A stretch of 64,000 bases of DNA. It comes from a virus. Lineage: Duplodnaviria; Caudoviricetes. The DNA is taken from IMG/VR virus record IMGVR_UViG_3300022602_000025; one strand, written 5' to 3'. The position numbers were made by a program, and so were the translations under genes. Within the stretch, counting starts at the first letter, position 1. The number at the start of each line of letters is the position of its first letter. Under the pieces are notes generated by a model that saw only the letters and a program-made list of their open reading frames with translations, made no database searches and was not told the DNA's origin. This document shows positions 5,501 to 38,901 of the stretch, piece by piece.

Positions 5501-8500
5501 ACTGTTGTAACTGATTTGATCGGCGGCTTCCAACCTAACCAAACATACATACCTGTTACATTTAGTTCTCCAACTGCTGTAGGTGGATCAAAAGCCCAGG
5601 GTTATGTTCAAACAAATAGTGCTGGTAAGGTTTATAACTTTGTTATAACTTTCCCAGGTGTTGGATATTCAACCGCTCCAACAGTAACTATCGGTGGTGC
5701 GGTTATTAACAACCTTGTGATCAGCACAGGTGGTGCTATTACATCATTTAATATTGCATCAGGCGGACAAGGTTATTCAACAGGCACAACGATTACAATT
5801 AATCCTATCGGAACTACTACTGTTAATACAGCGACAGCTCAAGTAACAGCGGTTAATACAGTAACTGGTGCTATCACATCAGCTACAATTATTTCAGGTG
5901 GTACTAACTGGGCTAGCAATATCAGTTACAATGTAGTATATGGTAACGTTTCATTACCAGTACCAACTCCAGTTCCAGGCTTCTTAGATAATGTACCTGC
6001 ACAGATTGAATTACAAACAGCTGGTAACCGTAGTATGTTGGCCAATGACTTTACACAGGTCAACGATTTAGGTTATGGTATCTTTATTAATAACGGTGGC
6101 TTCGCTGAAAACGTTTCAATGTTTACATACTACAACCATGTATCGTATTACTCATTGAATGGTTCACAAATTCGTTCTACTACAGGTTCAAGCTGTTACG
6201 GTGACTACGGTCTACGTGCTGAAGGTTCAGATCCTAATGAAGTTCCGACAGCAGCTAACTTATCATATGCGTTGACACAAGCTGTTGGTGCTTATGTAAG
6301 TTCTCCATCATACACAGCACTTCTTGGTGCAACTACAATTTATGTCCTTGTTGATTTAGTAAACGGAGGCTTCCCTCCATACAGCAGTGGACAGATGGAA
6401 ATCAACCATCACGGTGTTATCCAGAACTACACAATTAATGCCGCAAGCCAAATATTAGATGGCAGTGGAAATCCATTAACATCAGGCGGTAAGTATGTTT
6501 ACCAAATAACATTCGGTCCAGTTGGGTTGATTGATAACGTTGATAGCACAACTCCAATCGTACTACGTGCCACTGACGTATTCAAGTTGAATGGATTTAA
6601 TCCAGCGGCATTTAGTCGTCCTGCAACTGTACTAACATTCAATGATGATCCTACAACAATCTATCACGTAACTGATTACAGTTCAGTACAAACTGACAAC
6701 GCTGTATTCTCATACACTAGCGAAAATTATAATTACATCACATTTAGTACACAGAATCAAGGTGTAAATTATATTCCAATCGCTAACTCAGGTACACTCT
6801 ATACTACCGCTACTGTAACAATTAGTACAACAACATTATCACAAAACGTTACTAAGACAGTTAACGGTACACAAGGTAGTGCATTGTCAGGTGTTCAATA
6901 CCTAGCATTGACTACTTCATCTGGTACTCCAGTTGTTGGACAAGTTGTTAGCGGAACTGGTATTACAACAGGAACTGTTGTAACATTCTTTAATACAACT
7001 ACTCAGATCGTTGGTCTAAGTGTATCAACCGCAGCTTCTGTTGCCGGTGGTACAACTTTAACATTTACAAGTGTAAGACCTTCTGCAAGCGTAAAAATTA
7101 ATGGTGCAGGTAATATTGCAGGCATTACAGTAACTCCTGGCGCCGGTTGGGTTGGTACCACTACTACTGTTGCACTAACAGGAACTACTACAGGCGTTGG
7201 TGCTATTATTCCAACTAACATCAATATCGCAGGTAATGTCGGATCTAAGACGCTCCAAATCAGTAACTTAGATGCCAAGAGTGCCGCAAGAATTGCAAAC
7301 GGTTTAGCCGCAAGCACTCCTTACTATTATGAGTTTGGTGTTAACGGACAAAAATTTAAGATCCTTGCATATCGTAGCACAAGCGTAACTGGCCAGACAT
7401 GGGCAGAAATTGATGTCGACCAAGCGATCGCTGTTGCTATCAAACCAGGAATGACTTTACAAGCTGGCTTACCTAGCAACGGTTCTGCGGCAATCACAGT
7501 TATTATTTCTCTATGCCGTGTAACAGGACATGACTTCGTTGACGTAGGTACAGGTGGTTATGCAACTACTCGTATTCCAAACGACTTATACGGACCTCCA
7601 ATTATTAGTCCTGATCAAACTAAGGAAGTAATTGAAGTAGGCAAAGGTCGTGTATTCTATGTGTCTACTGACCAAGACGGTAACTTCCGTGTTGGTAGTG
7701 CTTTCCGTGTTGATCAATCACAAGGTACAGTTACTATTAGTGCTCCGTTAGATTTGACAAACTTAACTAGTTTGAGTTTGAAGAAAGATCTTGGACCAGC
7801 TATTACACAATTTACTATTGATGATACATTAGACGGATCAAGTCCAACTAACCAATTTGTTCCAACTGAACTAGCTGTTGTTAACTATATCAGCAGACGT
7901 TTAGGTATTGACCAAAACGGTAACGTTTATGCTGGATCTCCATTAGGACCACAGTTCTTAGCACGTAGTGGTGTGTTGCCAATGACTGGCTCAATTGACA
8001 TGGGTACACATAATATTGTTAACCTTGCTGCGCCGCGCCTAAGTTATGGTACTGACGCTGTTAACAAGAACTATGCAGATACTAAGATTAGTAACGCAGG
8101 TACTGCCGCTCTTGATGTTGATGGTTCTACACACGTTCCTAACTGGGGTGTAATGACTGGATCACTACAATTATCTAATGATCCATTTGTAGTTACAACT
8201 AGTGCAACTACTCAAGCTGTTAGCGGATTGTTCACAATCACTTTAGCAACTGTAACTGGTGTTACATTAGAAAATCAAGTTAACGCACCTGGTATAACTC
8301 CAGGTAGCTATATCACTCAGATTGATTATGTAAACAAAGTTATCACGTTGAATCAAGCGATTGCAACAACTATCACTCCATCAACAACTATTACGATTGA
8401 TCCTGTAGTGCAGGCCGCAACAAAACGTTACGTTGATAAACAAAGTCAATTCAATCAGCTACGTGATGTTTCAGTAAGCACAGCGACTGATACTGATTTA

Positions 8501-9937
8501 GTAATGTTTGCAGGTCCTATCGCTGTTAGTACAACAACTAACCCTGCTGTATATAATACTGCAACTAGAGTTGTTAATGTAACAAACAATACAGCTGCTA
8601 TCACAAACACATCATCTGCAAATGGTGGCGGTAGTGATGTAACATTAGCACGTACTGGCAATCAAGTAACTATTAAACTAGTCGGTGGTCAAGGTAGTGC
8701 TAACCCAATTACAGACTACCATGTAAACAATAATGCGGCTATCCAACAAAGTAAGTTGGCTATGAATGCCGCAACTACTCGTGCTAGTTCATCAGGAATT
8801 ACACAAGCTAACTTAGGTCTATCAAGTTTTGATAGTTCATTGTTTGCCGCAACTAACGGATGGGTAACATTAAACCTAGCAAACAATCTTTCACCGACAA
8901 CTGATATTGCTTATAACTTAGGTTCGTCAGGATTCCGTTGGGGTAACTTATTTGTTAACACAGCAACTATCAGCAGTAATTTAAATGTTGCAGGTGGATT
9001 AGTAACTACTAATACTTCATTCAACTTGTTAAATGCTACAGCAACTACAATTAACTTTGGTGGTGCTGGTACAGCGATCCGCATTGGTGCAAATACAGGT
9101 TGGACAAATATCAACAACCTTACAACAATCACTAATACAGCTAATGCTACTACTGTAACTAATGGTGCATTAAATGTTGTCGGTGGTTTAGGTGTACAAA
9201 AAGATGCGTACTTTGGCGGCCAGTTATATGTAGGAGGTAGTCCAGTACTAACTTATGCTAACTATACTCCAGGTGGTGTACAACAATTACTTGCAGGTCC
9301 TAATATTGCATTGAACCCAACAAGCGGTACAGGAACTGTAACTATAAGTGTAACAGGACAGTTAGGTGTTCCAACTGTAATTGGCTCGGCTAATCAGATT
9401 TTAGTAAATGGTTCAAGCGGGTCAACTTCAACTACAGCAACATTTACACTATCGCCAACACTTGATATTACTGTACAAAACTTACGTTCAGTTAGTGGCG
9501 GTGCTACTGTATATGGTACATGGACGTTAGCTAGCGGTGCTACTTTCCAAGCAACATACGCTGACTTGGCAGAGTGGTACACATCAGATGATTTCTACGA
9601 ACCAGGTACTGTGTTAATATTTGGTGGTGTTGCTGAAGTAACTGTAACAGCAGTAAGTAACGATTCAAGAGTTGCAGGTGTTGTAACAACTGATCCAGCT
9701 TATGTAATGAACGCAGGTATATCTACAGGTACAGCAGCTTGTATAGCATTACAAGGTCGTGTACCAGTTAAGGTTATCGGTGTTGTACGTAAAGGAGATT
9801 TACTAACAACTTCACTTACACCAGGATATGCAACTAAGGCAATGAACCCAACAGTAGGTACTATCATTGGTAAGGCATTAGCAGATAAAACAGACCCAGG
9901 AATGGGAATTATTGAAGTAGCTATAGGAAGAATGTAA
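2564..9937 (+). CDS. giant tail fibre / baseplate protein (2457 aa)
   Basis: T4 gp9/gp10-like N-terminus INVGSQSNDGTGDSIRDAF. Pectin-lyase-like entry motif SGEYYEQYPIKLPPNTSIRGDEFRR. Thr/Gly/Ser-rich body. C-terminal YADLAE...GRVPVKV intramolecular-chaperone-like domain. Confidence 0.8.
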   Translation: MANKEYINVGSQSNDGTGDSIRDAFSKVNTNFDTLFNVAGLGNGLRIKGGFSDGPTGYNTQSVLLTDALGTTVTQATIVGGTGIGINYDFAAGTITLTNNRSSLSSDPNPTLSANLSGNYTYRAVDFANPAADQDLVTRRWIYDNFLNRDSNYVYESGIPPTTSTVFGGSTLRQNISLLTTATSSTHLVNKAYADGKVSLAGISAIDPATGSTNTSFGQMTGALQLFRNPNSGDSYLTAATMGYVDNNTYWSDNNIYVNTKGSDYQPTVPSGRRGRNSQYAFATINKAARYAEALQNAAKIEVGDYARLITYANGQAATVSSTVNNYGGSKLTQLNLNVGTVGSDQFGSVSPGNYTIFPGQYIQGVESGALALIENIAKSSFSGAPEVYTIQYVDYAIGFNTDIIASNPLNSGTVAFTFVSLETAPIPDFWVGYQFYTDTGVPNGTIVSVQSTADFQGNYHDSFVVEFTSGAPTSGTISNGTWHVYSGDLQANEQVVYNTNVSSYQISLILESGEYYEQYPIKLPPNTSIRGDEFRRCIIRPAYGASGSKWANTYFKRDTQIDGLQIAALNSGTNYASTGSIANASVSLTGSNGSITVAVSTGTVSSTLTNFMFVGNGGQGVITAVNGSSFSVTVDNNGLTSASSIPAGSWAIYKPYNFGYHYLRDPSRPINVGNTQTNYGGYASAAALLTENRQFIQAQTVAYVNAITSGTNFQYNQVLCYRDAGLIVDSLVYDLTYGGYGQSTVAGDSYANVTAVQSGELTTTTAAIAFIGTLSQQIIQNQSVTLYQNTVTQTIDTTYTAESGSGVVLADMVNVINKILNKEADLNLPKLNSEMDVFLMNDATMVRYVSCQNHGGFMEVLDPVGQIKNKSPYTQTCSSFSQSNAKQRFAGGMYCDGFAGNVLATPTTSTLTTPILFPVNGLLRRPQVPTFFNVNGIRYEVDFFSNYTPDVILPTGEQTYKATLNLSPIKLGGLTLGATVVTDLIGGFQPNQTYIPVTFSSPTAVGGSKAQGYVQTNSAGKVYNFVITFPGVGYSTAPTVTIGGAVINNLVISTGGAITSFNIASGGQGYSTGTTITINPIGTTTVNTATAQVTAVNTVTGAITSATIISGGTNWASNISYNVVYGNVSLPVPTPVPGFLDNVPAQIELQTAGNRSMLANDFTQVNDLGYGIFINNGGFAENVSMFTYYNHVSYYSLNGSQIRSTTGSSCYGDYGLRAEGSDPNEVPTAANLSYALTQAVGAYVSSPSYTALLGATTIYVLVDLVNGGFPPYSSGQMEINHHGVIQNYTINAASQILDGSGNPLTSGGKYVYQITFGPVGLIDNVDSTTPIVLRATDVFKLNGFNPAAFSRPATVLTFNDDPTTIYHVTDYSSVQTDNAVFSYTSENYNYITFSTQNQGVNYIPIANSGTLYTTATVTISTTTLSQNVTKTVNGTQGSALSGVQYLALTTSSGTPVVGQVVSGTGITTGTVVTFFNTTTQIVGLSVSTAASVAGGTTLTFTSVRPSASVKINGAGNIAGITVTPGAGWVGTTTTVALTGTTTGVGAIIPTNINIAGNVGSKTLQISNLDAKSAARIANGLAASTPYYYEFGVNGQKFKILAYRSTSVTGQTWAEIDVDQAIAVAIKPGMTLQAGLPSNGSAAITVIISLCRVTGHDFVDVGTGGYATTRIPNDLYGPPIISPDQTKEVIEVGKGRVFYVSTDQDGNFRVGSAFRVDQSQGTVTISAPLDLTNLTSLSLKKDLGPAITQFTIDDTLDGSSPTNQFVPTELAVVNYISRRLGIDQNGNVYAGSPLGPQFLARSGVLPMTGSIDMGTHNIVNLAAPRLSYGTDAVNKNYADTKISNAGTAALDVDGSTHVPNWGVMTGSLQLSNDPFVVTTSATTQAVSGLFTITLATVTGVTLENQVNAPGITPGSYITQIDYVNKVITLNQAIATTITPSTTITIDPVVQAATKRYVDKQSQFNQLRDVSVSTATDTDLVMFAGPIAVSTTTNPAVYNTATRVVNVTNNTAAITNTSSANGGGSDVTLARTGNQVTIKLVGGQGSANPITDYHVNNNAAIQQSKLAMNAATTRASSSGITQANLGLSSFDSSLFAATNGWVTLNLANNLSPTTDIAYNLGSSGFRWGNLFVNTATISSNLNVAGGLVTTNTSFNLLNATATTINFGGAGTAIRIGANTGWTNINNLTTITNTANATTVTNGALNVVGGLGVQKDAYFGGQLYVGGSPVLTYANYTPGGVQQLLAGPNIALNPTSGTGTVTISVTGQLGVPTVIGSANQILVNGSSGSTSTTATFTLSPTLDITVQNLRSVSGGATVYGTWTLASGATFQATYADLAEWYTSDDFYEPGTVLIFGGVAEVTVTAVSNDSRVAGVVTTDPAYVMNAGISTGTAACIALQGRVPVKVIGVVRKGDLLTTSLTPGYATKAMNPTVGTIIGKALADKTDPGMGIIEVAIGRM

Positions 9938-26109: not shown

Positions 26110-26943
26110 ATGACTGACTTTTACCAAACACTCGGAGTTCCAAAAAACGCTAGCGAAGAGGACATTAAAAAGGCCTATAGATCGTTAGCTATGAAACATC
26201 ATCCTGACCGCGGGGGCGATCAGGCTAAATTCCAACAAATTCAAGAAGCCTACGCTACACTTAGCGATCCACAGGCTCGTGCTGAATACGATAATCCTCA
26301 ACCACAATTTGGCCCAGGCGGCCCAGGCGGATTCCAATTTCACTTTGGTCCAGGTGGTGGCGGATTTGAACAGTTCTTTGAACGTAGTCCGTTTGGAGAT
26401 ATATTTGGATTTAGACAACCAATGGGCAATCGCCCAATACAATTACAAACCTCTATTACATTAGAAGATGCTTTTTACGGTAAAGAAATAGTCGCACAGA
26501 TTACTTTACCTAGTGGACGTGATCGTACTATCAATATCAGTATACCAAAAGGTATACATGAAGGCACTACATTACGATTAGCAGGTATGGGGGACGACTC
26601 TATACAAACAGCACCAAAAGGTGATATTCTTCTTAATGTTCATATACAAGATCATCCTACATTTAAACGCCAGGGCGATGACCTTGTTCGTGATTTAGAA
26701 ATTAGTGCCATTGATGCATTGTTAGGTGCTAAAGTAGTTGTAAGTAGTTTAGATGGTAAACAACTTGAAACAGTTATTGATGCAGGTATCCAGCACGATG
26801 CTGTGTTGAGTTTAGGGGGTTATGGTATGCCAAACTTTAACGATCCAACAAGACGTGGACGGCTGTTGGTTAAGATTAAATTGCGTGTACCAAAACTAGA
26901 CGATAATCAAAAACAACAATTAAGAAACCTCAACCTTAAATGA
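26110..26943 (+). CDS. dnaJ: DnaJ/CbpA-type co-chaperone
   Basis: J domain with HPD, G/F-rich linker and DnaJ C-terminal domain; no Zn finger. Confidence 0.92.
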
Positions 26944-27431
26944 ATATTGTAAAATTTCCAGCAGAGATTTTGCGGACAAGGATGCCAGAGTTTGACTTTG
27001 ACAATCCTACTACAGATCCTGTACAATTAGAAAAAGACATGATTGAAGCCATGCTAACATATGATGGGATTGGGCTTGCTGCTAATCAAGTAGGCATCAA
27101 TGCTAGAATGTTTGTTATGGGTCATAGAGATAACCCAGAAAATGCAACAGCATTTTTTAATCCCGTAGTTGTTGCTAATACGGAAGATGTTAAAGATTTA
27201 GAAGAAGGCTGTTTAAGTTTTCCGGGTGTGTTTGTTAATGTTAAACGACCTACCGCTATTAAAGCACGTTGGCAAAACTCTAAAGGTGAAACACTAGAAG
27301 GAGAATTTAGTGGATATGAATGTAAGTGTTTTTTACATGAATTAGACCATTTAGAGGGTATTGTTTTTCAAGATAGAGTAAGTACATTAAAGTGGGCCAT
27401 GGCCGTTAAGAAATCAAAGAAAAGGAAATAA
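26940..27431 (+). CDS. def: peptide deformylase
   Basis: [13 protein letters not shown] and HELDH motifs. Confidence 0.95.
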
Positions 27432-27432
27432 G

Positions 27433-29712
27433 ATGTTAGAACCAAATAGCGATTTAGAAGCTGTATTTGATCGTGCTGTTAAAATTGCCGCAAAAAACAA
27501 ACACGAGTATATTACGTTAGAACACTTCTTATACAGTTTAATCATTGATTCAAAATTTGAACAGTTGCTGGGCGACTTTGGTGCAGATCTTGAATCTCTT
27601 AAAACTAACCTAGAAACATATATTGCAACAAAGCTAACTGAAATTGTTGTAGAAGATTTAAATCAGCGTCCTAAGAAAACACACTCAATGGAACGTATGT
27701 TAAATCGTGCGTTTACACAAGTGTTGTTTAGCGGTCGTTCAACTATCAGTCCTGTTGATTGCTTCATCAGTATGTTTGCTGAAAAGAAAAGTCATGCCGC
27801 ACATTTTATGCGTCAGGCAAAAATTGACAAAGATGCGTTCATTGACTATATTGGACAAGAAAAGACATCTTCAGAAAATCTTCCAGAAGATGTAAATTCT
27901 ACCCAACTTGAACGTATGTTGGTTCAATTCTGTACTAACCTTAATAACAAAGTTAAGCAGAAGAAAATTGATCCAGTTATTGGTCGTGAAAAAGAAATTG
28001 AAGAAATGCAATTGGTTCTTGCACGTAGAAACAAATGCAACGTCATGATGATTGGCGATCCTGGTGTAGGTAAGACAGCGATTGCTGAAGGTCTTGCACG
28101 TAACATCGTTGAAGGCAAGGTTCCTAAATTTATTGCTGACCATACCGTGTACGCATTAGATATCTCAGCTATGCTTGCTGGCAGTAAGTATCGCGGAGAT
28201 TTTGAAGAACGCTTGAAGATGGTTATCAACGCTCTTGAAAAGAAAAAGAATTGCATCTTGTTTATTGACGAAGCACACATGATTAACGGTGCAGGTGCTG
28301 TAAGCGGTAGTTCAAACGATATGGCTAATATGCTGAAACCTGCACTAGGCAAAGGCACTATTAAAGTTGTTGCGTCGACTACATGGGACGAATATCGTAA
28401 GCACTTTGAAAAGGATCGTGCATTGATGCGCCGTTTCCAACGTGTTGTGATTGACGAGCCAAGCGAAGCAACAGCTATTAAGATCCTTAAAGGTCTTAAG
28501 AAGTATTACGAAAAACATCATAATGTTAAGATCACTAATCAAGCGATCATTGATGCTGTCAAATATAGTATCAAGTATATGCCAGATAAGCACTTACCAG
28601 ACAAAGCTATTGATTTGATTGATTGTGCATCTGCTCGTTTTAAAGTACGTGACGAGGAAGGTGGCATTGTTGATCATGATGAAATCGTTTTTGAAGTATC
28701 TAAGATCGCAAATCTTCCAACAGAACAAGTTGCATCAAAAGAAAATAAAAACCTGCGTGACCTTGATAAGAACATGCGTGGTAAAGTGTTTGGCCAAGAA
28801 AAAGCGATTGATATTTTGTTAGACAAAATTTATATCGCACAAGCAGGATTAAAATCTATCAACAAGCCAGTTGGAAACTTCTTGTTCGTAGGTCCTACGG
28901 GCTGTGGTAAGACTGAGACAGCAAAAGTATTGGCAGAATCAATGGGAGTACAACTTGTACGATTTGATATGAGTGAGTTCCAAGAACAACACTCTGTTGC
29001 CAAGTTCATTGGTGCTCCTCCGGGCTATGTTGGCTTTGAGGATAATGCAGGTCAACTTGTTACTAAACTACAAGAACACCCAAACTGTATCTTGTTATTA
29101 GACGAAATTGAAAAAGCACATCCAAGTGTAAGCAACGTATTGTTAGGATTGATGGACAATGGCTTTGTAACAGGATCTAATGGTAAGAAAGCAGATGCTC
29201 GTAACGCTATCGTTATCCTAACTTCAAACTTAGGTGCAAGTGATGCTGAAAAGAACGGTATTGGATTTGGTAGCATTGATAAAGACGGCGAAATTAACAA
29301 TGCTGTTAATTCGTTCTTCAAACCAGAGTTCCGCAATCGTTTAGACGGTGTTATCCAGTTTGGTAAATTAGATCATGTTGTAATGATTAGGATCGTTAAG
29401 AAATTCGTTGACGAACTTAATGTGCAGATCAAAGATAAGAATGTGTTTGTTAAACCAGATACAGACGCTGTTGAATTGCTAATCAAGAAAGGCTTTAACA
29501 AGAAGATGGGTGCTCGTCCATTAGCTCGTGCTATTGATGAACATATCAAGAAACCGTTAAGTAAAGAAATTCTATTTGGAAGGTTAGTCAACGGCGGAGT
29601 TGTTGAAATCACTGCCGAGGACGATAAATTTAGTTTCAAGTTTGCTGACATATTGCCAGTTGAAAAAGCTAACATCGAAGAAGTTGAAGATGAAAGTTTA
29701 TCAAACGAATAA
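27433..29712 (+). CDS. clpA: ClpA-like Hsp100 ATPase
   Basis: HEYITLEH N-domain, two AAA modules (GDPGVGKT, GPTGCGKT) and an IGF ClpP-binding loop. Confidence 0.92.
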   Translation: MLEPNSDLEAVFDRAVKIAAKNKHEYITLEHFLYSLIIDSKFEQLLGDFGADLESLKTNLETYIATKLTEIVVEDLNQRPKKTHSMERMLNRAFTQVLFSGRSTISPVDCFISMFAEKKSHAAHFMRQAKIDKDAFIDYIGQEKTSSENLPEDVNSTQLERMLVQFCTNLNNKVKQKKIDPVIGREKEIEEMQLVLARRNKCNVMMIGDPGVGKTAIAEGLARNIVEGKVPKFIADHTVYALDISAMLAGSKYRGDFEERLKMVINALEKKKNCILFIDEAHMINGAGAVSGSSNDMANMLKPALGKGTIKVVASTTWDEYRKHFEKDRALMRRFQRVVIDEPSEATAIKILKGLKKYYEKHHNVKITNQAIIDAVKYSIKYMPDKHLPDKAIDLIDCASARFKVRDEEGGIVDHDEIVFEVSKIANLPTEQVASKENKNLRDLDKNMRGKVFGQEKAIDILLDKIYIAQAGLKSINKPVGNFLFVGPTGCGKTETAKVLAESMGVQLVRFDMSEFQEQHSVAKFIGAPPGYVGFEDNAGQLVTKLQEHPNCILLLDEIEKAHPSVSNVLLGLMDNGFVTGSNGKKADARNAIVILTSNLGASDAEKNGIGFGSIDKDGEINNAVNSFFKPEFRNRLDGVIQFGKLDHVVMIRIVKKFVDELNVQIKDKNVFVKPDTDAVELLIKKGFNKKMGARPLARAIDEHIKKPLSKEILFGRLVNGGVVEITAEDDKFSFKFADILPVEKANIEEVEDESLSNE

Positions 29713-30892: not shown

Positions 30893-31291
30893 ATGAAACT
30901 ATACGAATTTTTTGGCAAAATTGATCGAAGTGTTAATCCAGAGGATAAAGATAAAGATCCTTCTACATTAAATCAAGAAGAAGAACAGCATCTTGCAGAT
31001 GACCTTTTTTGGTTTATAATCGATCACGATGATCTACATAAACAGCACTTTATGCCTAAGGCTAAAGAGCTTAAGGCTGCACACAGCGCAGACAAATCCG
31101 ATAGTACTAAAGATTGGAAACACTGGCTACCAATGGTTAAGGAAGGCTGTATTAGGTACTTTGAACAACATCATGTACCTGGTGATCCTAAAGAAACATT
31201 TAATCAAGAATTTATGAAAACGTTATGCAGACGTTGTGCAGAACACTATCATAAAGATATCATTAAAGGCGAATATAAGTTAGGCCACTAA
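30893..31291 (+). CDS. hypothetical, putative internal head protein
   Basis: MKLYEFF leader; TAAATA at 30856-30861. Confidence 0.6.
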   Translation: MKLYEFFGKIDRSVNPEDKDKDPSTLNQEEEQHLADDLFWFIIDHDDLHKQHFMPKAKELKAAHSADKSDSTKDWKHWLPMVKEGCIRYFEQHHVPGDPKETFNQEFMKTLCRRCAEHYHKDIIKGEYKLGH

Positions 31292-31292
31292 T

Positions 31293-34200
31293 ATGCTTTT
31301 GAATAGTTTATTCCAACCTAAAGAACAAATTAATGAAGCCATCACTGTTGATGAATTCAAAGATATATTAAAGAAGTTCTTGCCCCTTGCTAAAAAGATA
31401 ATTGGTCTAGAAAAACTTCCCACTATCGTTCTTAAAAAAACACTAGCACACGGCGATCAACCAACTATGGGTCGTTTTTATAACGACACTTATACTTTAG
31501 AACTAGCAGTTGCTAATCGTCAACCTGTTGATGCACTGAGAACATTAGCTCACGAGCTAACACATGCCCTACAAGATAGCGAGCATATCGAAATCAGTCC
31601 AGAAACAGGTAGCCCAGAAGAAAACAAAGCGAATGAAATGGCTGGTATTGTTATGCGCCACTTCAATAAGCAATACCCAGAATACTTAAAATACCAATCC
31701 ATTATGGAAGGTGGTAATTTAGAAGTACCTGATGTTGATCAACCAGGTCAATCTCATCAAGCAGATACTATAGAATTAAAAGTACACAACCGTAGTTTCA
31801 TGGTCGGTGTATTAAACAAGTTACTACAAGACATCAATGCGTCTTTCCAAGCACAGTATAATCAACCATTATGGAGTCCTCAGCTGATAAAAGCTGGTAC
31901 ATTCCTAAGTGGTAGCTCATTACACTTCTTCAATGTTAAAGGCATTCCAGACGAACAGTTTGTTGCTAAGAAACCTAAAGTAGGTGACATTGATACACAA
32001 TGCGATAAAGAATTAGAACCACAAGTACAGCAATACTTAACATCTATTGTTGGCAAACAAGTAGGTACAGCCAAGTTCTTAGGATTCAAACCAGGTAATA
32101 ATCAGTTCTCTGGACTGTTCCAACTACAAGATCCACCTGTTAAAGTACAGATTGACTTTGAGTTTGGTCGTTATGATCCTAAGACTAATGCTCCAGACGA
32201 GTGGTATTCATACAGTCATAGTTCAGACTGGTCGGACGTTGAAGCAGGTGTTAAGGGTGTATTCCACAAATACATAGACCGTGCATTACCATACGCTAAG
32301 ACTAGTGAAAAATACGTTGCTCGTGTACTTAAGAAGAGTACAAAGATTAGCGATCAGCCTGTTGTAGATGCTGATTATAGTTTTGCTGTAGCAGGTGGTC
32401 AAGGTGGTGGTGTAAGTGCCAAGTATAAGCCTTATATCGATCCTACAACAGGTGAGCCAATGATGAAAGATGGCATTCCTGTTATGCAGGAGCTACCTCC
32501 TAACCAAAGAGATTACATACAAAATCTAGCACAACAGTTTGAGATCTACTTTGATCGTAAACCAAAAGGCAATGACCTTGAATTACTAAACAGTTTCCAA
32601 GGTACTATACAATTAGCAAACAAATATCTTGATGATCAACAACGTCAAGAAGTTGCTAATCGTTTCTTAGACATTTGTTTTGAGCCGGGCTCACAGATGA
32701 TTACTAAAAACGATCCTGCAAGTGATCGTGAAGCAAAGTTCGCAGCTATTGATCTTATGGTTGAAAGACTAAAGATGACTGATCCTCAAGGATTTAGAAA
32801 ACACGCTGTTGAAATGAGCAAAGCATATGAAGATGCTTTTAGAGTTAAAAAACAACCAATGGCAGAATCTATTTTAAACGAAGCAGATCCTGAACAACCA
32901 CAAGTTAAAGCACAACTACGTAAAGGCATGCCGCATTTACGTGATTTAAAGTCAGCAGACTTTTTAGATTTATTAGATGAACTACATCAAGGTAATGGTA
33001 AGTTTGAATTAAAGAATATTCCACTTAATGTTAAAGTAGACGGCTTTGGTGGACGCTTTGGTAAAAATGCAGAAGGCAAACCTTTCATGGGTACTAGCCG
33101 CACAGAGCCGCGCTATGAAGCAAGTTTTGTAAAATATCATCAACAAAAAGGAACCACTGATCCAGATATACTAGGTCGTGCTCAAATGTTTGATGACTTG
33201 TTTAATGAAATGATGGATGCTATTAAATTAGTAGATAGCAAACTAGGTAAAGATTTCTTAATCAACAAACAAGTAACTTGCGAAGTATTATATCTTCCAT
33301 TCGCTACAGAAACTCCAGAAGGCAAATTAAAGTTTGTTGGCATACACTATGACAAACTACCAGATGGTGTGCAACTAGCCCTAGTTCCTTTCCGTGTAGT
33401 AGAAGGCGACACAGGCGAAGATCTACCTGATTCAGATAAGTTTATTAAACAATTAACTAAAGTAGGTAAAGCAGGTAGTGTAATGTTTATTGACAACAGC
33501 CTAACACAGAATGAAGCGTTAGATGTTACAGCACTTGTACCTCCTATGGAAAACATAGCACAGTTTAAGGCTATGTTAGCAAGCAAGAAACGTGATCAAG
33601 CCGCAGAAGTTAAGGCCGCACTTGAGCCAGTTAAACTTGCTCTTGAAAAAGCAATCATTGAAGATCCAAATATTGTTGGTAAAGATTTATTAGGTAAGAA
33701 TTACGAAGGTATTGTTATTAACAGTCGCCTTGGTCCTATTAAAGTTACTAGTCAAGAACAACGTGATGTTATACAGGCTAAGAAAGATGCTATGGCTAAT
33801 GCTCGTACAGAACGTCCACGCGGTGAATCGAAGACCGCTGTAGTTGCTATTGGTAGTTTTGTTGGCCATAAAGGTCACGAAGAACTGTTTAACTATACAA
33901 TTAACAAAGCAAAACAATTAGGTGGTGATCCTTATTTGTTTATTGGTAATGCTGTAGGTAAAAATGATCCAATTCCTCCAGCTACTAAAGTAGAAACATG
34001 GCACAAGATGTATCCTGAATATGCCGATAACATCAGCACAGTTCAAGAAGGTGGTACACTACTACAAAAGATCAAACACGAATTAATCAATCCGTTACCA
34101 GGCAAACCTCCACGTTACGATAATATTGTTATTATGGTAGGTGAGGATCAAAAAGATATGCCTATCGCTGGCGCACTGATGAAAGCTGTTAACAAGTTCC

Positions 34201-35558
34201 CAGGATATGAACATGTTAATGTTAAATTAGAAGCGACACCGCGTGGCACCGGAATGAGCTTTACTAAGTTGCGTAATATTTTAAAAGATGTTAATGCGAC
34301 TCCAGAAGAACAATTAAAAGTTTGGGAACAAGGGTTCGATGTTAAAAAATTAGGTGCTGAATGGATTAAGCATCTAATGGATTTAACACGTAAAGGAATG
34401 GGCCTAGGTGAACCACACACTAGTCCAAGCGGAGTAAAAACAAATATGCCAAAGAATGACGATGACTATGCAATTAATTACGGTCCTAAAGGTCTTGCTA
34501 AACCAAAACCAGGTCGTGTTTTAAATGCACTAGTAGCACCTAAAGAACCGCAAGCAGAAAGCGTAGATGGTGGTACAGCAGAAATTAAAAAAGAGCCAGT
34601 AGGTGGCGGTAGTTATGTATCAATGAGTCACATGCCTTGGGAAGCGATTGGACCTAATCCACACGATCCTGATCCAATGAATCCGATGATCCATCATAAA
34701 TCAAATCCTGCTGCATTAAAAGATCGTATGTTAAGAGCAAGCGGACAGTTAAAAGATCTAGCGACTCGAGCACAAACAGCAAGTCCAATGGAATGGCAAA
34801 GCATCACTCGTCATTTTAAAGAACTACAAATGAACATTGACGAGATTGAACACGCACTAGCAGAGTTAGCCAAACAAAGACGTAGAGGCGGTGTTCGTAG
34901 TCGTGGCATTGATAAAAACATTGACGAAAAAATGTTGCCAGCTAGTGCATTTGCTGGTAGCAAGAAAAACAAGTTAGGTACAGCAGGTCAACTACGCAAT
35001 CAAAAGCGTGGCGCTCGTGCAGGTGACCTAGTCGGTGGCTCTGCAGAAAGTGTAGAAACAGAATGTGCAGGAGTCGGTACTGTTACAGCACAGAATACAA
35101 CTGTTGATGTTAAGCCAAATACATTAAACAAAGAATTGAAAGCATTTTTCCCTAAACAGAAAAAAGCAAAAACAGAAGCCGCCAATGCTGCACAACAGGC
35201 TGCTATCGCTATCGCTAAAAAGAAAGAAAAAGGTGTTGACGAAGATCAGCGACTAGATCCTAAATGTTGGAAAGGTTATCGCAAGCAAGGCACCAAAATG
35301 AAAGGTGGGACAAGAGTTAATAATTGTGTTAAAATAGGTGAAGCGTGGGAAGATGAGATTTCCAATGCTGTTAGCAAATTACTTGAAAACTTTGCAGATG
35401 GTAAAAATCCTGGACGTAAAGGTTTGGCAAAACGTAGTGGTGTTAATACCAAAGCAAGTGTTAGTGATTTAAGAAAGACAGCTAAACATAGCACAGGCGA
35501 AAAGGCTCGCATGGCACATTGGTTAGCTAATATGAAAGCAGGCAAGGCAAAGAAATGA
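31293..35558 (+). CDS. 1421-aa multidomain polyprotein: HExxH peptidase + Pol-beta-type nucleotidyltransferase + KxDG ligase-like domain + HxGH nucleotidyltransferase + basic peptide modules
   Basis: Motifs HELTH...ENKANEMAG; SGSS..GDID..VQID; VKVDG..EGIV..IKV; GHKGH..SFTKLR. Confidence 0.7.
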   Translation: MLLNSLFQPKEQINEAITVDEFKDILKKFLPLAKKIIGLEKLPTIVLKKTLAHGDQPTMGRFYNDTYTLELAVANRQPVDALRTLAHELTHALQDSEHIEISPETGSPEENKANEMAGIVMRHFNKQYPEYLKYQSIMEGGNLEVPDVDQPGQSHQADTIELKVHNRSFMVGVLNKLLQDINASFQAQYNQPLWSPQLIKAGTFLSGSSLHFFNVKGIPDEQFVAKKPKVGDIDTQCDKELEPQVQQYLTSIVGKQVGTAKFLGFKPGNNQFSGLFQLQDPPVKVQIDFEFGRYDPKTNAPDEWYSYSHSSDWSDVEAGVKGVFHKYIDRALPYAKTSEKYVARVLKKSTKISDQPVVDADYSFAVAGGQGGGVSAKYKPYIDPTTGEPMMKDGIPVMQELPPNQRDYIQNLAQQFEIYFDRKPKGNDLELLNSFQGTIQLANKYLDDQQRQEVANRFLDICFEPGSQMITKNDPASDREAKFAAIDLMVERLKMTDPQGFRKHAVEMSKAYEDAFRVKKQPMAESILNEADPEQPQVKAQLRKGMPHLRDLKSADFLDLLDELHQGNGKFELKNIPLNVKVDGFGGRFGKNAEGKPFMGTSRTEPRYEASFVKYHQQKGTTDPDILGRAQMFDDLFNEMMDAIKLVDSKLGKDFLINKQVTCEVLYLPFATETPEGKLKFVGIHYDKLPDGVQLALVPFRVVEGDTGEDLPDSDKFIKQLTKVGKAGSVMFIDNSLTQNEALDVTALVPPMENIAQFKAMLASKKRDQAAEVKAALEPVKLALEKAIIEDPNIVGKDLLGKNYEGIVINSRLGPIKVTSQEQRDVIQAKKDAMANARTERPRGESKTAVVAIGSFVGHKGHEELFNYTINKAKQLGGDPYLFIGNAVGKNDPIPPATKVETWHKMYPEYADNISTVQEGGTLLQKIKHELINPLPGKPPRYDNIVIMVGEDQKDMPIAGALMKAVNKFPGYEHVNVKLEATPRGTGMSFTKLRNILKDVNATPEEQLKVWEQGFDVKKLGAEWIKHLMDLTRKGMGLGEPHTSPSGVKTNMPKNDDDYAINYGPKGLAKPKPGRVLNALVAPKEPQAESVDGGTAEIKKEPVGGGSYVSMSHMPWEAIGPNPHDPDPMNPMIHHKSNPAALKDRMLRASGQLKDLATRAQTASPMEWQSITRHFKELQMNIDEIEHALAELAKQRRRGGVRSRGIDKNIDEKMLPASAFAGSKKNKLGTAGQLRNQKRGARAGDLVGGSAESVETECAGVGTVTAQNTTVDVKPNTLNKELKAFFPKQKKAKTEAANAAQQAAIAIAKKKEKGVDEDQRLDPKCWKGYRKQGTKMKGGTRVNNCVKIGEAWEDEISNAVSKLLENFADGKNPGRKGLAKRSGVNTKASVSDLRKTAKHSTGEKARMAHWLANMKAGKAKK

Positions 35559-35926
35559 GAGCGAGTGAATTTATAACTGAATCAGCTGCTTGGCAAAAAT
35601 CTAGCGGTAAGAATAAGAACGGCGGCTTAAACAAAAAAGGTGTCGCTAGTTATCGCAGAGAACATCCAGGTAGCCATTTACAAACAGCCGTAACTACTAA
35701 ACCTAGTAAGTTAAAGAAAGGTAGCAAGGCCAGCAAGCGCCGTAAGAGCTTTTGTGCTCGTATGAAAGGTATGAAGAAACACCGCACTGGAGCAAAAACT
35801 AAACGAGATCCAAATAGCCGTATTAATAAATCTCTGCGTAAATGGAACTGTGAAAGTATTGAACAAATGCAACAAATGATCATTGAAGGTGAACAAATGA
35901 TCAATAAGTTAAAACAAATTTTATGA
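35555..35926 (+). CDS. highly basic putative internal protein (DUF6321-like)
   Basis: MRASEFITE leader; K/R-rich with RRKSFCARM and SLRKWNC; family name from memory. Confidence 0.6.
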   Translation: MRASEFITESAAWQKSSGKNKNGGLNKKGVASYRREHPGSHLQTAVTTKPSKLKKGSKASKRRKSFCARMKGMKKHRTGAKTKRDPNSRINKSLRKWNCESIEQMQQMIIEGEQMINKLKQIL

Positions 35927-36243
35927 AACAATACTATATAACATCTGATCATCTTCCGCAGGATAGCGATAATGACGCATATCTTGCACCAGACGATCCT
36001 ATACACGAGCTAAAGGTAGTGCAATACCTAGCAGGGCTTGGTGGTGAAGCACGATTACAGGAATATCGCGCCAAAACCGCACAGCACAACAAGGAAATAA
36101 ATAAAGGTAGTAATGTTTCAACAACAGCGGCTGAAAAAGTTCAGCTGATGAAAGATAATAATATTAAACCAGGATCTCCTGAATATATTAAACTATGGTT
36201 TAGTAAACCATTTTTAACTGGCGAAAAGCCTGTGGGAAAGTAA
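35923..36243 (+). CDS. hypothetical protein
   Basis: Coupled ORF within the late cluster. Confidence 0.6.
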   Translation: MKQYYITSDHLPQDSDNDAYLAPDDPIHELKVVQYLAGLGGEARLQEYRAKTAQHNKEINKGSNVSTTAAEKVQLMKDNNIKPGSPEYIKLWFSKPFLTGEKPVGK

Positions 36244-36636
36244 ATGAGAGCTAGAGAATTCATAAGTGAAAAAGTAAACAAGATTCCTGCGAATCAGCAA
36301 TCTGCTACTCCTGGCATGCGTAGTCATCCAAATCTAGATAACTCTAGTCCATATCACCCATGGCGTTTTTCCGCACACTTTTTAGCTGGCGCAAATGGTG
36401 TCGACGATTATGAACACCAACCAGACCGTGATGGTCCTGCAGGTCAAGCGTTAGTTACAGTTGCATATTCAAAAGGCGATGCTGCTATTATTGATCAAGC
36501 TGAAAAAGCATTCGGCAAAGAAGCAAGGCATACAAAATTATCTCCTCCTGGTTCTAGTGAGGAAAGCGATGTAGGTACAACTAGTCCAGTAGCAAACTGG
36601 ATGAAACCAACGAAAGAAAAGAAAAGTAAAAAATGA
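36244..36636 (+). CDS. hypothetical, putative internal protein
   Basis: MRAREFISE leader. Confidence 0.6.
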   Translation: MRAREFISEKVNKIPANQQSATPGMRSHPNLDNSSPYHPWRFSAHFLAGANGVDDYEHQPDRDGPAGQALVTVAYSKGDAAIIDQAEKAFGKEARHTKLSPPGSSEESDVGTTSPVANWMKPTKEKKSKK

Positions 36637-37751
36637 GTAAACCAGAAGTATACTTAGACCTAGACGGAGTAGTAGCAGACTTTTTTACAGAGTATGCTAA
36701 ACTTGCCGGCGTTGAAAACGGCAACTACAGAGATATCCCCCCAGCAAAAACAGATCCTACACTAGACAAAATGGTAGGTACTGATTTCTTTAATCGTCTG
36801 CCTAAGTGTCCTAACGCTGATCAACTAGTACACATGATCGTAAAACTATACGGAAAATATCATGTGTGCTCAAGTCCCCTACGTGGCGATCATGAAAACT
36901 CAGAAAAATGGAAAAAGGTTTGGATTCAACGTGAATTGAAACCAGGTCCTGTTGATGTAATCATTACACCAAACAAAGCCAAATATGCAAAACAAGCAGA
37001 TGGTACACCTAACATCTTAATTGATGATAGAGGTAGTAATATCTCTGCTTGGGAAGCCGCAGGTGGTATTGGTATTAAGTATCAGGCAGATGAAGATAGT
37101 CTAAGTAAAGTAGTAGACGGATTTACTCGCGCTCGCAAGATTCTTAAAGGTGAAGAAGAACATAAACCACAACAATTAAAAAGCAAAGATCGTAGCTCAG
37201 GAAAACTAATTGCCAAGAGCGGCGACAGCGATGAAGAACCTAGTTCAGCAGCAGATGTACAAGAGAACGATGAGATAAATCCTCGTTTCCAATCTAGACC
37301 AATGATGGCTAAAGAAACTACAAGATATACTGGATCTGGAATACATCCAAAACTAGTCGATGTACTAAAACAAAGAGGTTATAAAGGACCATATCAGCTC
37401 GGTAAATTAAAAAAATGGTTTGTTCATCTTAAAGATGATGTCGGTGCAGAAGCCGATGATGAAATTATGGTTACAGGCAATGACGTCGAGTACGATGAAT
37501 GGGTTTTGAAACCAAAATACGGAATGTATGCGTTTGGTTCAGAAGGCGGATACATGGAAGGTGACGCTAATAAAGTTATCAAAAATACCGCACCATTAGG
37601 CGAGTCAGCAAGCAGTGGAGCTAGCGGAGTAAGCGGAGGAGCGTCTAATTCAGGAACTGGCCCTTACGGTAACGGTTTTGCATTTGGTGGTCCTGGGGCG
37701 GAATCAGTTAGTTCCAAAAAAAAGAAAAAGCCAAAACTTATTAAGAGATAA
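36633..37751 (+). CDS. HAD-family 5'(3')-nucleotidase-like phosphatase with C-terminal extensions
   Basis: YLDLDGVVADF, SSPL and ILIDD motifs; low-complexity and extra domain after aa ~170. Confidence 0.8.
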   Translation: MSKPEVYLDLDGVVADFFTEYAKLAGVENGNYRDIPPAKTDPTLDKMVGTDFFNRLPKCPNADQLVHMIVKLYGKYHVCSSPLRGDHENSEKWKKVWIQRELKPGPVDVIITPNKAKYAKQADGTPNILIDDRGSNISAWEAAGGIGIKYQADEDSLSKVVDGFTRARKILKGEEEHKPQQLKSKDRSSGKLIAKSGDSDEEPSSAADVQENDEINPRFQSRPMMAKETTRYTGSGIHPKLVDVLKQRGYKGPYQLGKLKKWFVHLKDDVGAEADDEIMVTGNDVEYDEWVLKPKYGMYAFGSEGGYMEGDANKVIKNTAPLGESASSGASGVSGGASNSGTGPYGNGFAFGGPGAESVSSKKKKKPKLIKR

Positions 37752-37753
37752 TC

Positions 37754-38398
37754 ATGAACGAAGCTAAAAAAGATCGTAAACGTCCAATATATACAATTAA
37801 ACCTCGTACAGGACACGCACCTACACAAACAGGTGCAGGTGCTCACAAGGATAAAAAGAAAGCTGATAAACAAGGCGATGTAAAGCATAAGAAAAAAGAC
37901 TATGCTGAAGGTCTTGAAGAATTATTATCTAAAATAGTTAAAGAAAATCGCGACATGAATGATCGCGAAGTCAATGGTAACATTATGCCTGCAGAAGGTA
38001 TGGACGAACCAGAAGGCGAAACTCTTAAAAATAGCCTACATACAATTATCCGTGTGGCAACACATCTAGACAAAAGGTTAGATGTTAATGACGATTTCCC
38101 AGAATGGGTAAGCGAAAAGATGGGTGCTATTAAAGGTATGATGGTTAGTGTTATGGATTACTTAATAAGTGATCAAGAAATGTCACAGGACCCAGATGCG
38201 ATGGAAGGTTACGGTTTCGGTGATACACCAAAGCCACAACAAAAGAATACTAAAAATACTTTTACTAAAAAAGTACCACACGGCGGACTACCTGAATCAA
38301 AAGGATGGACACACGATAGTCTAGCAGATAGACTATTTGAACATGAACGCACTTATGAAGAAAAGTTAGCGAACATGCTTAGAAAAATATCAAAGTAA
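37754..38398 (+). CDS. hypothetical modular protein
   Basis: Basic peptide, then acidic helical modules separated by Glu sites. Confidence 0.55.
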   Translation: MNEAKKDRKRPIYTIKPRTGHAPTQTGAGAHKDKKKADKQGDVKHKKKDYAEGLEELLSKIVKENRDMNDREVNGNIMPAEGMDEPEGETLKNSLHTIIRVATHLDKRLDVNDDFPEWVSEKMGAIKGMMVSVMDYLISDQEMSQDPDAMEGYGFGDTPKPQQKNTKNTFTKKVPHGGLPESKGWTHDSLADRLFEHERTYEEKLANMLRKISK

Positions 38399-38901
38399 TG
38401 CACATTTTTGAAGTTGTTTCCTCGGACTACGAAATCCGTAACTATCATAAGTTAGATCGTATCCTTACCAAACTATGTGAAATGGTTGTCGAAGGTAAGA
38501 AAAGCGATAAAGATTATGGTATGGTTGCTGCAGCCGTTTTAGATCCAGATAACAATATAGTAGCCGGACTTAACTATCCTGGTGAAGATGGTAAACGCAT
38601 ACATGCAGAACATGCTGCGATTGAAGCGTATCATAAAGAGTACGGCGACATTCCAGAAGGCAGTATCATCCTAACTACACTAAGTCCATGTAATACTCAT
38701 ATGGATGAGCGTGATGGACCACCATGCGCCGATCTTATTGAACAAGCAGGCGTACTCAAAGTTTATTGCGGTTACATGGACCCTTCTCAAAACCATGGCA
38801 GTAAGGATCACAGACATTTTAATTTGATGGAAACTGAAAATCTCCAAATTAGAGAACTGTGCCAATCTTTCGCTGATACATTCCTAAAAGATTCAAAATA
38901 A
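38398..38901 (+). CDS. zinc-dependent deaminase (RibD/CMP-dCMP deaminase fold)
   Basis: HAE...TTLSPC...PPCADLIEQAGV..VYCGYMDP. Confidence 0.85.
   Translation: MHIFEVVSSDYEIRNYHKLDRILTKLCEMVVEGKKSDKDYGMVAAAVLDPDNNIVAGLNYPGEDGKRIHAEHAAIEAYHKEYGDIPEGSIILTTLSPCNTHMDERDGPPCADLIEQAGVLKVYCGYMDPSQNHGSKDHRHFNLMETENLQIRELCQSFADTFLKDSK

Follow-up and report, generated by a model that had tools for sequence, protein, structure and literature searches.

What would a phage do with a single gene that strings four enzyme-like modules behind a short leader resembling a head-targeting signal? The question is raised by positions 31293–35558 (plus strand) of a 64,000-nucleotide stretch of Caudoviricetes DNA (IMG/VR virus record IMGVR_UViG_3300022602_000025; hereafter the window), which hold a continuous reading frame of 1421 amino acids plus stop. 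An initial annotation had taken the product for a polyprotein that is packaged in the phage head, cut into separate enzymes and injected into the host. The present analysis gives a probability of about 0.5 to a reading of this kind, in which the gene would encode a packaged, protease-cut and injected nucleic-acid repair polyprotein made up of the following parts (an arrow marks a putative point of cleavage):

31293–31337, plus strand: N-terminal leader, residues 1–15 (MLLNSLF...INE↓A), resembling the T4 capsid-targeting sequence
31338–31709, plus strand: domain a, residues 16–139, a small HExxH zincin-like module ending at IME139↓G
31710–32882, plus strand: domain b, residues 140–530, a Pol-beta-superfamily nucleotidyltransferase, PolX- or terminal uridylyltransferase (TUTase)-like, ending at LNE530↓A
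32883–33797, plus strand: domain c, residues 531–835, a covalent nucleotidyltransferase of the ATP-dependent RNA-ligase type, without an OB domain
33798–34427, plus strand: domain d, residues 836–1045, an HxGH (HIGH-type) nucleotidylyltransferase, joined to c
34428–35555, plus strand: variable basic tail, residues 1046–1421, with 68 K/R against 42 D/E and small modules that each follow [LIV]xE
Sites within the tail: IDE1212↓K; VDE1317↓D, opening a PKCWKGY...NCV module; IGE1350↓A; and LLE1365↓NFADGK
Residues 1366–1421 of the tail, after LLE1365: a DUF6321-like module

The four enzyme-like modules follow one another in the order first proposed, all of the motifs originally quoted for them are found in place, and their catalytic residues proved invariant in alignments of divergent homologues. 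At the superfamily level the enzyme assignments are very likely correct, although curated families contribute little: neither the whole protein nor any of its pieces had a Pfam match above threshold, sequence and profile searches of the PDB were empty for b and c and, for d, found RibF over its HxGH stretch and nothing else, and in PHROGs b belongs to one unknown family and c and the tail to others. The assignments of b and c were carried by structure prediction and fold search, and that of d by invariant motifs and profile matches.

Domain b contains SGSS (residues 206–209), GDID (231–234) and VQIDFE (285–290), which provide the hG[GS] motif, the DxD pair and the third acidic residue on a neighbouring strand by which Pol-beta enzymes are recognised. 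The catalytic residues G207, S208, D232, D234, D288 and E290 are invariant in 90 divergent sequences, as are G140, G141, R167 and Q286. An AlphaFold2 model made from these alignments, with a predicted local distance difference test (pLDDT) score of 95.9, gave weak Foldseek matches to Pol beta and Pol lambda in the PDB, while the exhaustive VIA search placed TUT7, Pol mu, Pol beta, TdT, Trf4, Pol lambda, GLD-2 and the PolX of African swine fever virus (ASFV) at Z 6.6–7.8, with OAS and poly(A) polymerase in the same range. Clusters of the AFDB yielded a 'polymerase nucleotidyl transferase domain' protein (E 1.5e-7), and a shape search of the ESM Atlas brought up minimal viral PolX proteins (one at TM 0.66 by target), fusions of PolX with ligase from giant viruses, and a viral cluster in which CTP_transf_like and DNA_pol_B_palm occur together. 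The Pfam DNA_pol_B_palm, thumb and helix-hairpin-helix (HHH) profiles had no match in b. All top matches from VIA, Foldseek and the AFDB are Pol-beta-fold nucleotidyltransferases, and b, as modelled, is a putative new family of these enzymes; the proteins nearest to it in shape all work at the 3' ends of polynucleotides.

Domain c has the nucleotidyl-lysine motifs VKVDG (580–584, motif I), TCEV (662–665, motif III), EGIV (805–808, motif IV) and IKVTS (816–820, motif V), within which K581, D583, G584, E664, E805, G806 and K817 are invariant in 36 sequences, K581 being the predicted nucleophilic lysine. Its AlphaFold model (pLDDT 95.1) matched archaeal Rnl3 in Foldseek (E 1e-5, probability 1.0), followed by REL1, Rnl5, T4 Rnl1 and DNA ligases. 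In VIA the Z scores were 10.7 for Naegleria Rnl5, 9.8 for REL1 and 9.4 for T4 Rnl2, with 19 ligases above 8, clearly over the unrelated structures, and capping enzymes at 6–7. The HxGH domain starts within about 20 residues of motif V, leaving no room for an OB domain and giving c an RNA-ligase-like arrangement. Named RNA ligase profiles scarcely detect it, as the Pfam RNA_ligase profile (PF09414) matched one of the 36 sequences (E 0.075) and RNA_lig_T4_1 (PF09511) none at E <= 0.1.

The idea that c is the replicative DNA ligase of the phage was rejected: besides the lack of an OB domain in c, there is a separate ATP-dependent DNA ligase (PF01068) in G006, a 331.6-kb, 93%-complete relative in which the gene neighbourhood is syntenic with the window. 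Separately, the viral Pfam family DUF6267 (PF19782, about 536 residues) was matched by one c sequence (2e-4) and by the shape of the b model (TM 0.50), and may be another nucleotidyltransferase-ligase fusion family.

Domain d carries GHKGH (858–862) and SFTKLR (989–994), which supply the HxGH motif and the C-terminal S/T-x-x-R nucleotide-binding motif of HIGH enzymes, with G858, H859, G861, H862 and R994 invariant in 38 sequences and T991 nearly so. It is matched by phrog_3041, a 'cytidyltransferase' (3.6e-13), its profile matches the FAD synthetase RibF at 3e-4, FAD_syn matches, all under the cut-off and at best 2.3e-5, were obtained for 36 of the 38 sequences, and its language-model neighbours in the ESM Atlas are viral CTP_transf_like clusters. 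These features place d, as a predicted member, in the HIGH nucleotidylyltransferase superfamily, in agreement with its designation as a third nucleotidyltransferase in the initial annotation.

For domain a, described there as an ImmA/IrrE-like metallopeptidase, the metallopeptidase motif stands and the family name is less secure. HELTH (87–91) and ENKANEMAG (110–118) are in place, the family showing a GSP-EENK-NE-AG pattern besides the HExxH, and H87, E88 and H91 are present in at least 97% of 38 sequences. The domain is sub-threshold for several zincin families, the best being the M78/IrrE-like PF06114 (16.3 bits against a cut-off of 22), and by ESM Atlas features it lies at 0.94 to viral clusters of which 14–19% carry PF06114. 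It is also optional, being present in about a quarter of close homologues.

The evidence for processing comes from the leader and from the glutamates at the domain borders. Every fused homologue starts with a leader of consensus M-[LNIFK]-L-x-[EDQ]-[LFI]-[FI] that closes in [L/I/V]-x-E; its length is 5–22 residues, mostly 13–16, and it is followed by the invariant Gly-Gly-Asn (GGN) that opens domain b. In the 138 unique leaders that precede E↓GGN, the third residue before the cut (P3) is Leu in 87, Ile in 45 and Val in 6, so that one of these three occurs in 100%. Some homologues have a further module at the N-terminus (domain a, DUF6321, or a homologue of the upstream open reading frame (ORF) described below); in these the leader keeps its place at the extreme N-terminus, and [L/I/V]-x-E↓GGN again marks the start of the core. 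Leaders of 9–12 residues, such as M-K-Q-F-K-N-F-L-N-E, are frequent in stand-alone b proteins, and the leader is portable between otherwise unrelated proteins of the gene cluster. In T4, the prohead protease gp21 cuts after L/I-x-E, and the internal protein IPIII has a capsid-targeting sequence of 10 residues, of which 4 and 7 serve targeting and 8 and 10 serve processing (PMC9026906). The shortest family leaders, of 9–11 residues, have for example F4, F7, L8 and E10, and the family leaders, as putative targeting sequences, match that of T4 at these functionally mapped positions.

A second regularity concerns proteins in which nothing precedes GGN. In 23 proteins that start M-G-G-N the start Met takes the place of the Glu, and in Vibrio phage Va1 this start is certain, as there is a stop codon five codons upstream and the ribosome-binding site is good. 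The Glu is thus needed only when a peptide precedes GGN.

Internal sites were sought as conserved Glu residues in poorly conserved surroundings, and three positions emerged: E139 at the border of a and b (98% conserved, neighbour conservation 0.41, Gly at P1' in 100%), E530 at the border of b and c (98% conserved, neighbour conservation 0.30, L/I/V at P3 in 96%, Ala at P1' in 95%) and E1350 in the tail (95% conserved). At E139 and E530, P3 is L/I/V(M) in 96–100% of homologues. The protein contains 17 [LIV]xE in total, against 18 ± 3.8 in shuffled sequence, and at this chance density the signal lies only in the position and conservation of particular sites. DUF6321 modules almost always follow [LIV]xE, which is LLE in 25 of 40. 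The initial annotation had named INE↓A (E15), IME↓G (E139) and LNE↓A (E530) as border sites, and all three are present, the latter two being those at 98% conservation; its further inference of cutting into separate enzymes needs correcting, as there is no conserved Glu site between c and d and the likely products are a, b and c-d plus pieces of the tail. The Glu sites are retained in about 95 close homologues that lack domain a, indicating that the protease would act in trans; a role for domain a as the general processing protease was rejected on this ground.

A protease of the appropriate type is encoded by relatives. A Peptidase_S77 protein (the family of T4 gp21) was found in four of five long IMG/VR contigs that carry the gene, above the Pfam cut-off and at E of about 1e-27, and in none of five shorter IMG/VR fragments, which are too short. 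The head module of G006 runs in the T4 order of portal, 80-aa ORF, 311-aa ORF, protease, an ORF in the scaffold position and major head protein, and its capsid protein belongs to the Gp23 family. Throughout G006 the leader motif starts 13 of 363 ORFs, compared with 3.75 expected from internal methionines (P = 1.5e-4). The 80-aa ORF (L107:12608-12850, corresponding to G006 132608-132850), situated between portal and protease in the position of T4 gp67/gp68, itself begins with a family leader (MLLNEFI...).

The Gp23-family capsids of this clade (L107:15745-16926, P0271-P0390) are about 392 residues long, start MSQLLNE... and have LLE↓G at residues 16–18, which suggests a candidate propeptide that is very short compared with that of T4 gp23. 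The capsid homologues are at least 90% identical and too alike for an analysis of cleavage sites as a positive control.

Taken together with the leader and the border sites, this machinery makes it probable, on indirect evidence, that the polyprotein is processed and packaged in the head. Several points weigh against such delivery, and most of them also favour an unlikely alternative, in which the same enzymes would act in the cytoplasm and would not be virion cargo, the leader and Glu sites serving another protease, an assembly or degradation signal, or linker structure. The polyprotein gene lies away from head genes, none of which are in the window, among chaperone, protease and replication genes; it adjoins those for DnaJ, peptide deformylase, a ClpA-like ATPase and DNA polymerase, a synteny kept in G006. 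However, T4 internal-protein and alt genes also lie outside the head gene cluster. The T4 late-promoter consensus TATAAATA is depleted in the window, occurring once against 7.1 expected. The homologues in the cultured phages X1, YB07 and Va1 are leaderless, starting directly at MGGN, so that virion delivery is not intrinsic to the enzyme system, and stand-alone c-d proteins without a leader also occur. The 15-residue leader of the 1421-aa protein itself, with Ser5, is a looser match than those of many homologues. What makes purely cytoplasmic action improbable is the form of the leaders and sites: a leader that fits the mapped positions of the T4 sequence and is portable between unrelated cluster proteins, a P3 restricted to L/I/V in 138 of 138 leaders, a Glu that is dispensable exactly where nothing precedes GGN, and, inside the head module of relatives, a gp21-type protease together with a leader-bearing ORF.

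The enzymatic core is widespread. More than 865 homologues were found by a word-index search, and the core is 58–74% identical over hundreds of environmental jumbo-phage contigs; the best 120 are 54–80% identical to the query over the aligned region, with one near-copy at 98%. An exhaustive search of representatives at 50% identity gave 2098 clusters with a match to the b-c-d family, from uncultured jumbo phages. Coverage mapping showed the core, residues ~137–1040, in 120 of the 120 top homologues, the N-terminal 136 residues in about one quarter and a variable C-terminal tail. Hidden Markov models built for the individual domains assigned at least one domain in 259 of 270 fetched proteins, with b-c-d in 128, a-b-c-d in 28, b alone in 54, c-d in 12, b-c in 8, d in 17 and a in 9, some of the short architectures being contig-end fragments.

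Whether the domains are fused or adjacent in related phages had been posed as a check, and both arrangements exist: in most genomes b is fused or adjacent to c, and in two cultured T4-like lineages the parts form operons of separate genes. Xanthomonas phage X1 has adjacent genes for b (336 aa), an unrelated 334-aa protein, c (286 aa) and a CTP_transf_like protein (162 aa, Pfam-significant), and Stenotrophomonas phage YB07 (Menderavirus) has b-like gp053 (E 2.7e-13), gp054, c-like gp055 (2e-13) and CTP_transf_like gp056 (1.4e-10). Downstream of the operon, a few genes away, both phages have a baseplate-hub gene, and the X1 operon is a few kb from DpdA and QueE genes. The HIGH enzymes of these operons belong to another subfamily than d and carry GRFQPxHxGH, a motif typical of nicotinamide mononucleotide (NMN) adenylyltransferase-like enzymes; alignment of d with the X1 enzyme by hhalign was weak (E 0.043), indicating operon partners that share a superfamily with d and are at most candidate orthologues of it. 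An independent fusion of a HIGH nucleotidyltransferase of the operon-partner type with b occurs in P0237, and an ESM Atlas match also shows such a fusion. That these three activities repeatedly turn up fused or side by side argues for b, c and d being parts of what would be a single pathway.

A KVDGER motif in the 334-aa middle gene of X1 (L016:6948-7952) may point to another enzyme of ligase type; neither a Pfam match nor profile similarity to domain c was found for this gene.

The overall reading would order these observations as follows. The leader would take the precursor into the prohead core, where the prohead protease would cut after E15, E139, E530 and the tail sites, releasing domain a, domain b with a Gly-Gly-Asn N-terminus, the c-d enzyme and small basic peptides. 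The products would leave the head together with the DNA. In the host, b would add one or a few nucleotides to damaged 3'-OH ends, most likely of RNA by analogy with RlaP, and c would seal the break, while d would make or handle a nucleotide-linked cofactor or intermediate required by the chemistry of b or c. In sum, breaks made by host defence nucleases in tRNA or other nucleic acid would be repaired from the outset of infection.

RlaP, with RNA ligase the closest analogue that has been characterised, is reported to be a Pol-beta nucleotidyltransferase that is encoded with RNA ligases and adds one or two nucleoside monophosphates (NMP) to damaged RNA 3'-OH ends, and it is proposed to counter nucleotide-excising ribotoxins such as RloC (bioRxiv 10.64898/2025.12.29.696909; PMC7824862). 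G006 has no NAD-dependent ligase, no Pfam RNA ligase (PF09414) and no RlaP, and the RlaP profile (PF10127) had no match in five related contigs. The genome search with PF09511 (Rnl1) was empty too, but its controls were equally silent, so that it does not bear on absence. With a separate DNA ligase, and with no RNA ligase of PF09414 or RlaP in G006, b and c may be the only RNA-repair-like pair of the phage. The comparisons favour RNA over DNA as the likelier substrate of b and c.

A repair function nevertheless stays tentative, at somewhat less than an even chance, as several findings count against it. The structural matches of b are modest, with Z below 8; b falls in no Pfam nucleotidyltransferase family, and none of its 90 sequences matches the RlaP profile at E <= 0.1. 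Motif V of c reads K817-x-T819, with an invariant Thr replacing the second lysine of K-x-K. No polynucleotide kinase or cyclic phosphodiesterase was found in the cluster, only a HAD phosphatase-like gene, so that the set would by itself be unable to heal the ends that metal-independent RNases leave. No role for d follows from known repair pathways. Since DNA polymerases are among the best matches to b in shape, DNA remains a possible substrate.

This last point leads to an unlikely variant of the repair scheme in which the set would work on DNA: b would serve as a minimal polymerase resembling family X, or as a terminal transferase, and c would seal nicks in the phage genome, either in nick and gap repair on entry or together with nearby 7-deazaguanine DNA-modification genes. 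It can draw on the alignment of b over 164–184 residues with family-X polymerases (Pol beta, mu and lambda and nearly all of ASFV PolX at Z 6.8–7.7; TdT aligns over a similar span), on the giant-virus PolX-ligase fusions among the Atlas shape matches and on the proximity of the X1 operon to DpdA and QueE. The Z scores for PolX are, however, no better than those for RNA-specific TUTases, and the helix-hairpin-helix and 8-kDa domains are not seen in b. Domain c lacks the OB domain of DNA ligases and has RNA ligases as its best matches, and G006 is already supplied with a canonical ATP-dependent DNA ligase.

Least probable is a purpose other than repair, in which the nucleotidyltransferases would AMPylate or UMPylate host proteins, or would produce or salvage a nucleotide cofactor or signal such as NAD or FAD, for host takeover or to counter NAD-depleting or nucleotide-signalling defences: the Pol-beta nucleotidyltransferases of polyvalent proteins predicted to modify proteins (PMC5512222), the FAD synthetase as nearest profile match of d, the GRFQPxHxGH of the leaderless operon partners and the known NAD synthesis of phages by HIGH adenylyltransferases (PMC9503650) point that way, but it leaves unexplained the obligate partnership with a ligase-fold enzyme having all nucleotidyl-lysine motifs, the closest structures to b all act on polynucleotide 3' ends, and a NadV-type partner was not seen, although none was searched for.

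The most novel form of the repair reading, an injected three-enzyme end-repair cargo that would reverse damage by anticodon nucleases or nickases before phage gene expression, with a GGN N-terminus that would be functionally required, is less likely than not.

The surroundings of the gene are consistent with its inclusion in a larger set of leader-bearing genes. The upstream ORF stops at 31291 and is followed after one base by the ATG of the polyprotein ORF, the stop of which is overlapped by the start of the downstream ORF at 35555, placing the 1421-aa ORF in a translationally coupled string of genes on the same strand. The neighbours concerned are:

30893–31291, plus strand: upstream 132-aa ORF, leader MKLYEFF
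35555–35926, plus strand: downstream 123-aa ORF, leader MRASEFITE, with a DUF6321 domain
36244–36636, plus strand: 130-aa ORF, leader MRAREFISE
38398–38901, plus strand: 167-aa cytidine/dCMP-type deaminase (Pfam PF00383, E 1.8e-11), leader-like start MHIFEVV

Leader-bearing genes are thus grouped at 30893–38901, with MKLYEFF, MLLNSLF, MRASEFITE, MRAREFISE and, more loosely, MHIFEVV, and the modules of the small genes recur as N- or C-terminal parts of b-c-d polyproteins elsewhere. The homologue of the 132-aa ORF is a fused N-terminal module of b-c-d proteins in other phages (P0126, P0150), the DUF6321 module of the 123-aa ORF also ends the polyprotein tail, the leader of the 130-aa ORF is near-identical to the MRAREFITE that precedes GGN in a stand-alone domain-b protein (P0177), and a deaminase module is also present in the tail of one b-c-d homologue (P0092). 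With its leader-like start, the deaminase is a possible candidate for packaging. The interval as a whole looks like a hyperplastic cargo locus, by analogy with the internal-protein locus of T4.

Other genes of the window identify it as phage DNA, including tail-fibre-like giants, a clamp loader, DnaJ, peptide deformylase, the ClpA-like ATPase and a family-B DNA polymerase. The polymerase is closest (43–51% identity) to those of Sinorhizobium phage Phosso, Agrobacterium phage Atu_ph07 and Rak2-like Escherichia coli jumbo phages, and the source is a T4-related (Rak2-like) jumbo phage of about 330–350 kb. A 2457-aa ORF at 2564–9937 with a tail-fibre PHROG match (2.8e-39) is followed by three more fibre-like ORFs. 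At 26110–29712, directly upstream of the cargo cluster and in the same order in G006, genes stand in a row for a DnaJ-like protein, a peptide deformylase matched by phrog_2890 (1.4e-41) and a double-AAA+ protein of 759 aa that resembles ClpA/ClpB (phrog_4871, 1e-244). The product of the gene at 36633–37751 is 372 aa long and, over roughly its first 177 residues, resembles a HAD 5'(3')-deoxyribonucleotidase PHROG (4e-20); it has no Pfam match, and its C-terminal half is without any match. This gene adjoins the polyprotein gene in G006 too, and its product could be an end-healing phosphatase. No tRNA genes were found in the 64-kb window.

The initial annotation knew of no characterised system with this architecture. 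The combination does appear new, whereas the pairing of a Pol-beta nucleotidyltransferase with RNA ligase (RlaP) and the polyvalent proteins had already been described. The RlaP-ligase pair likewise couples a Pol-beta nucleotidyltransferase genetically to a 5'-phosphate RNA ligase-type enzyme and is common in jumbo phages (Burroughs and Aravind 2016, as cited in PMC7824862), and its logic of restoring lost 3' nucleotides before sealing would be the same; here the pair is fused with an HxGH enzyme, bears a leader like the capsid-targeting sequence and protease sites, and has its b outside PF10127. The T4 internal proteins and Alt (PMC9026906, PMC3012670) share a short hydrophobic or aromatic N-terminal leader, an L/I-x-E cleavage motif, portability of the leader between unrelated proteins of a variable cluster and basic components, and Alt is a precedent for a packaged enzyme. 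Unlike them, the present protein is a multi-enzyme precursor of about 160 kDa with internal sites; its leaders are mostly 13–16 residues long against 10 in T4, and its clade is Rak2-like and only distantly related to T4.

Polyvalent proteins (Iyer et al. 2017, PMC5512222), the nearest concept, also combine unrelated effector domains in one polypeptide, sometimes with a zincin metallopeptidase, and are predicted to be virion-embedded, processed and early-acting. They differ in that processing here seems to depend on the prohead protease, the sites being kept without the HExxH domain, in that there is no MuF or portal fusion here, and in that the trio of ligase-fold, HxGH and PolX-like domains is not described in the passages of PMC5512222 consulted. 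The family X polymerases and ligases of large DNA viruses (ASFV and giant-virus fusions) also join a minimal Pol-beta-fold domain to a lysine-nucleotidylating ligase, but these ligases have OB domains and DNA substrates, and b resembles PolX at the level of fold only (Z ~7, identity ~10%). The tRNA repair enzymes T4 Rnl1 and Pnkp provide a phage ligase-fold enzyme that could likewise reverse anticodon-nuclease damage; they are not packaged, the polyprotein has no kinase or phosphatase healing partner, and c is in no named Rnl Pfam family. No paper describing the b-c-d family was found in the literature searched. The combination appears new, as do three domain families that lie outside curated ones, the placing of prohead-protease sites between enzymes in the manner of a polyprotein, an N-terminal Gly-Gly-Asn that seems to be required and an HxGH enzyme as constant third partner; virion-embedded polyvalent proteins processed by zincin peptidases, the T4 capsid-targeting and gp21 system and the pairing of RlaP with ligase are already known.

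The b-c-d core is among the more widespread uncharacterised enzyme systems of large phages, and none of its three domains is in a curated family. If the overall reading is true, the injected enzymes of phages would come to include nucleic-acid repair beside the protein modification known from T4 Alt, and Rak2-like jumbo phages would be shown to use the T4 capsid-targeting system together with the processing of a polyprotein. The family would also offer new tractable enzymes, namely a PolX-like terminal transferase of minimal form, a ligase that lacks the OB domain and the HxGH transferase that always goes with them. The rule combining leader and cleavage site could predict the whole ejected proteome of uncultured phages. 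An injected end-repair machine, in which a PolX-like enzyme extends 3' ends, an RNA-ligase-like one seals and an HxGH enzyme plays a supporting part of a new kind, would be a previously unrecognised class of virion cargo.

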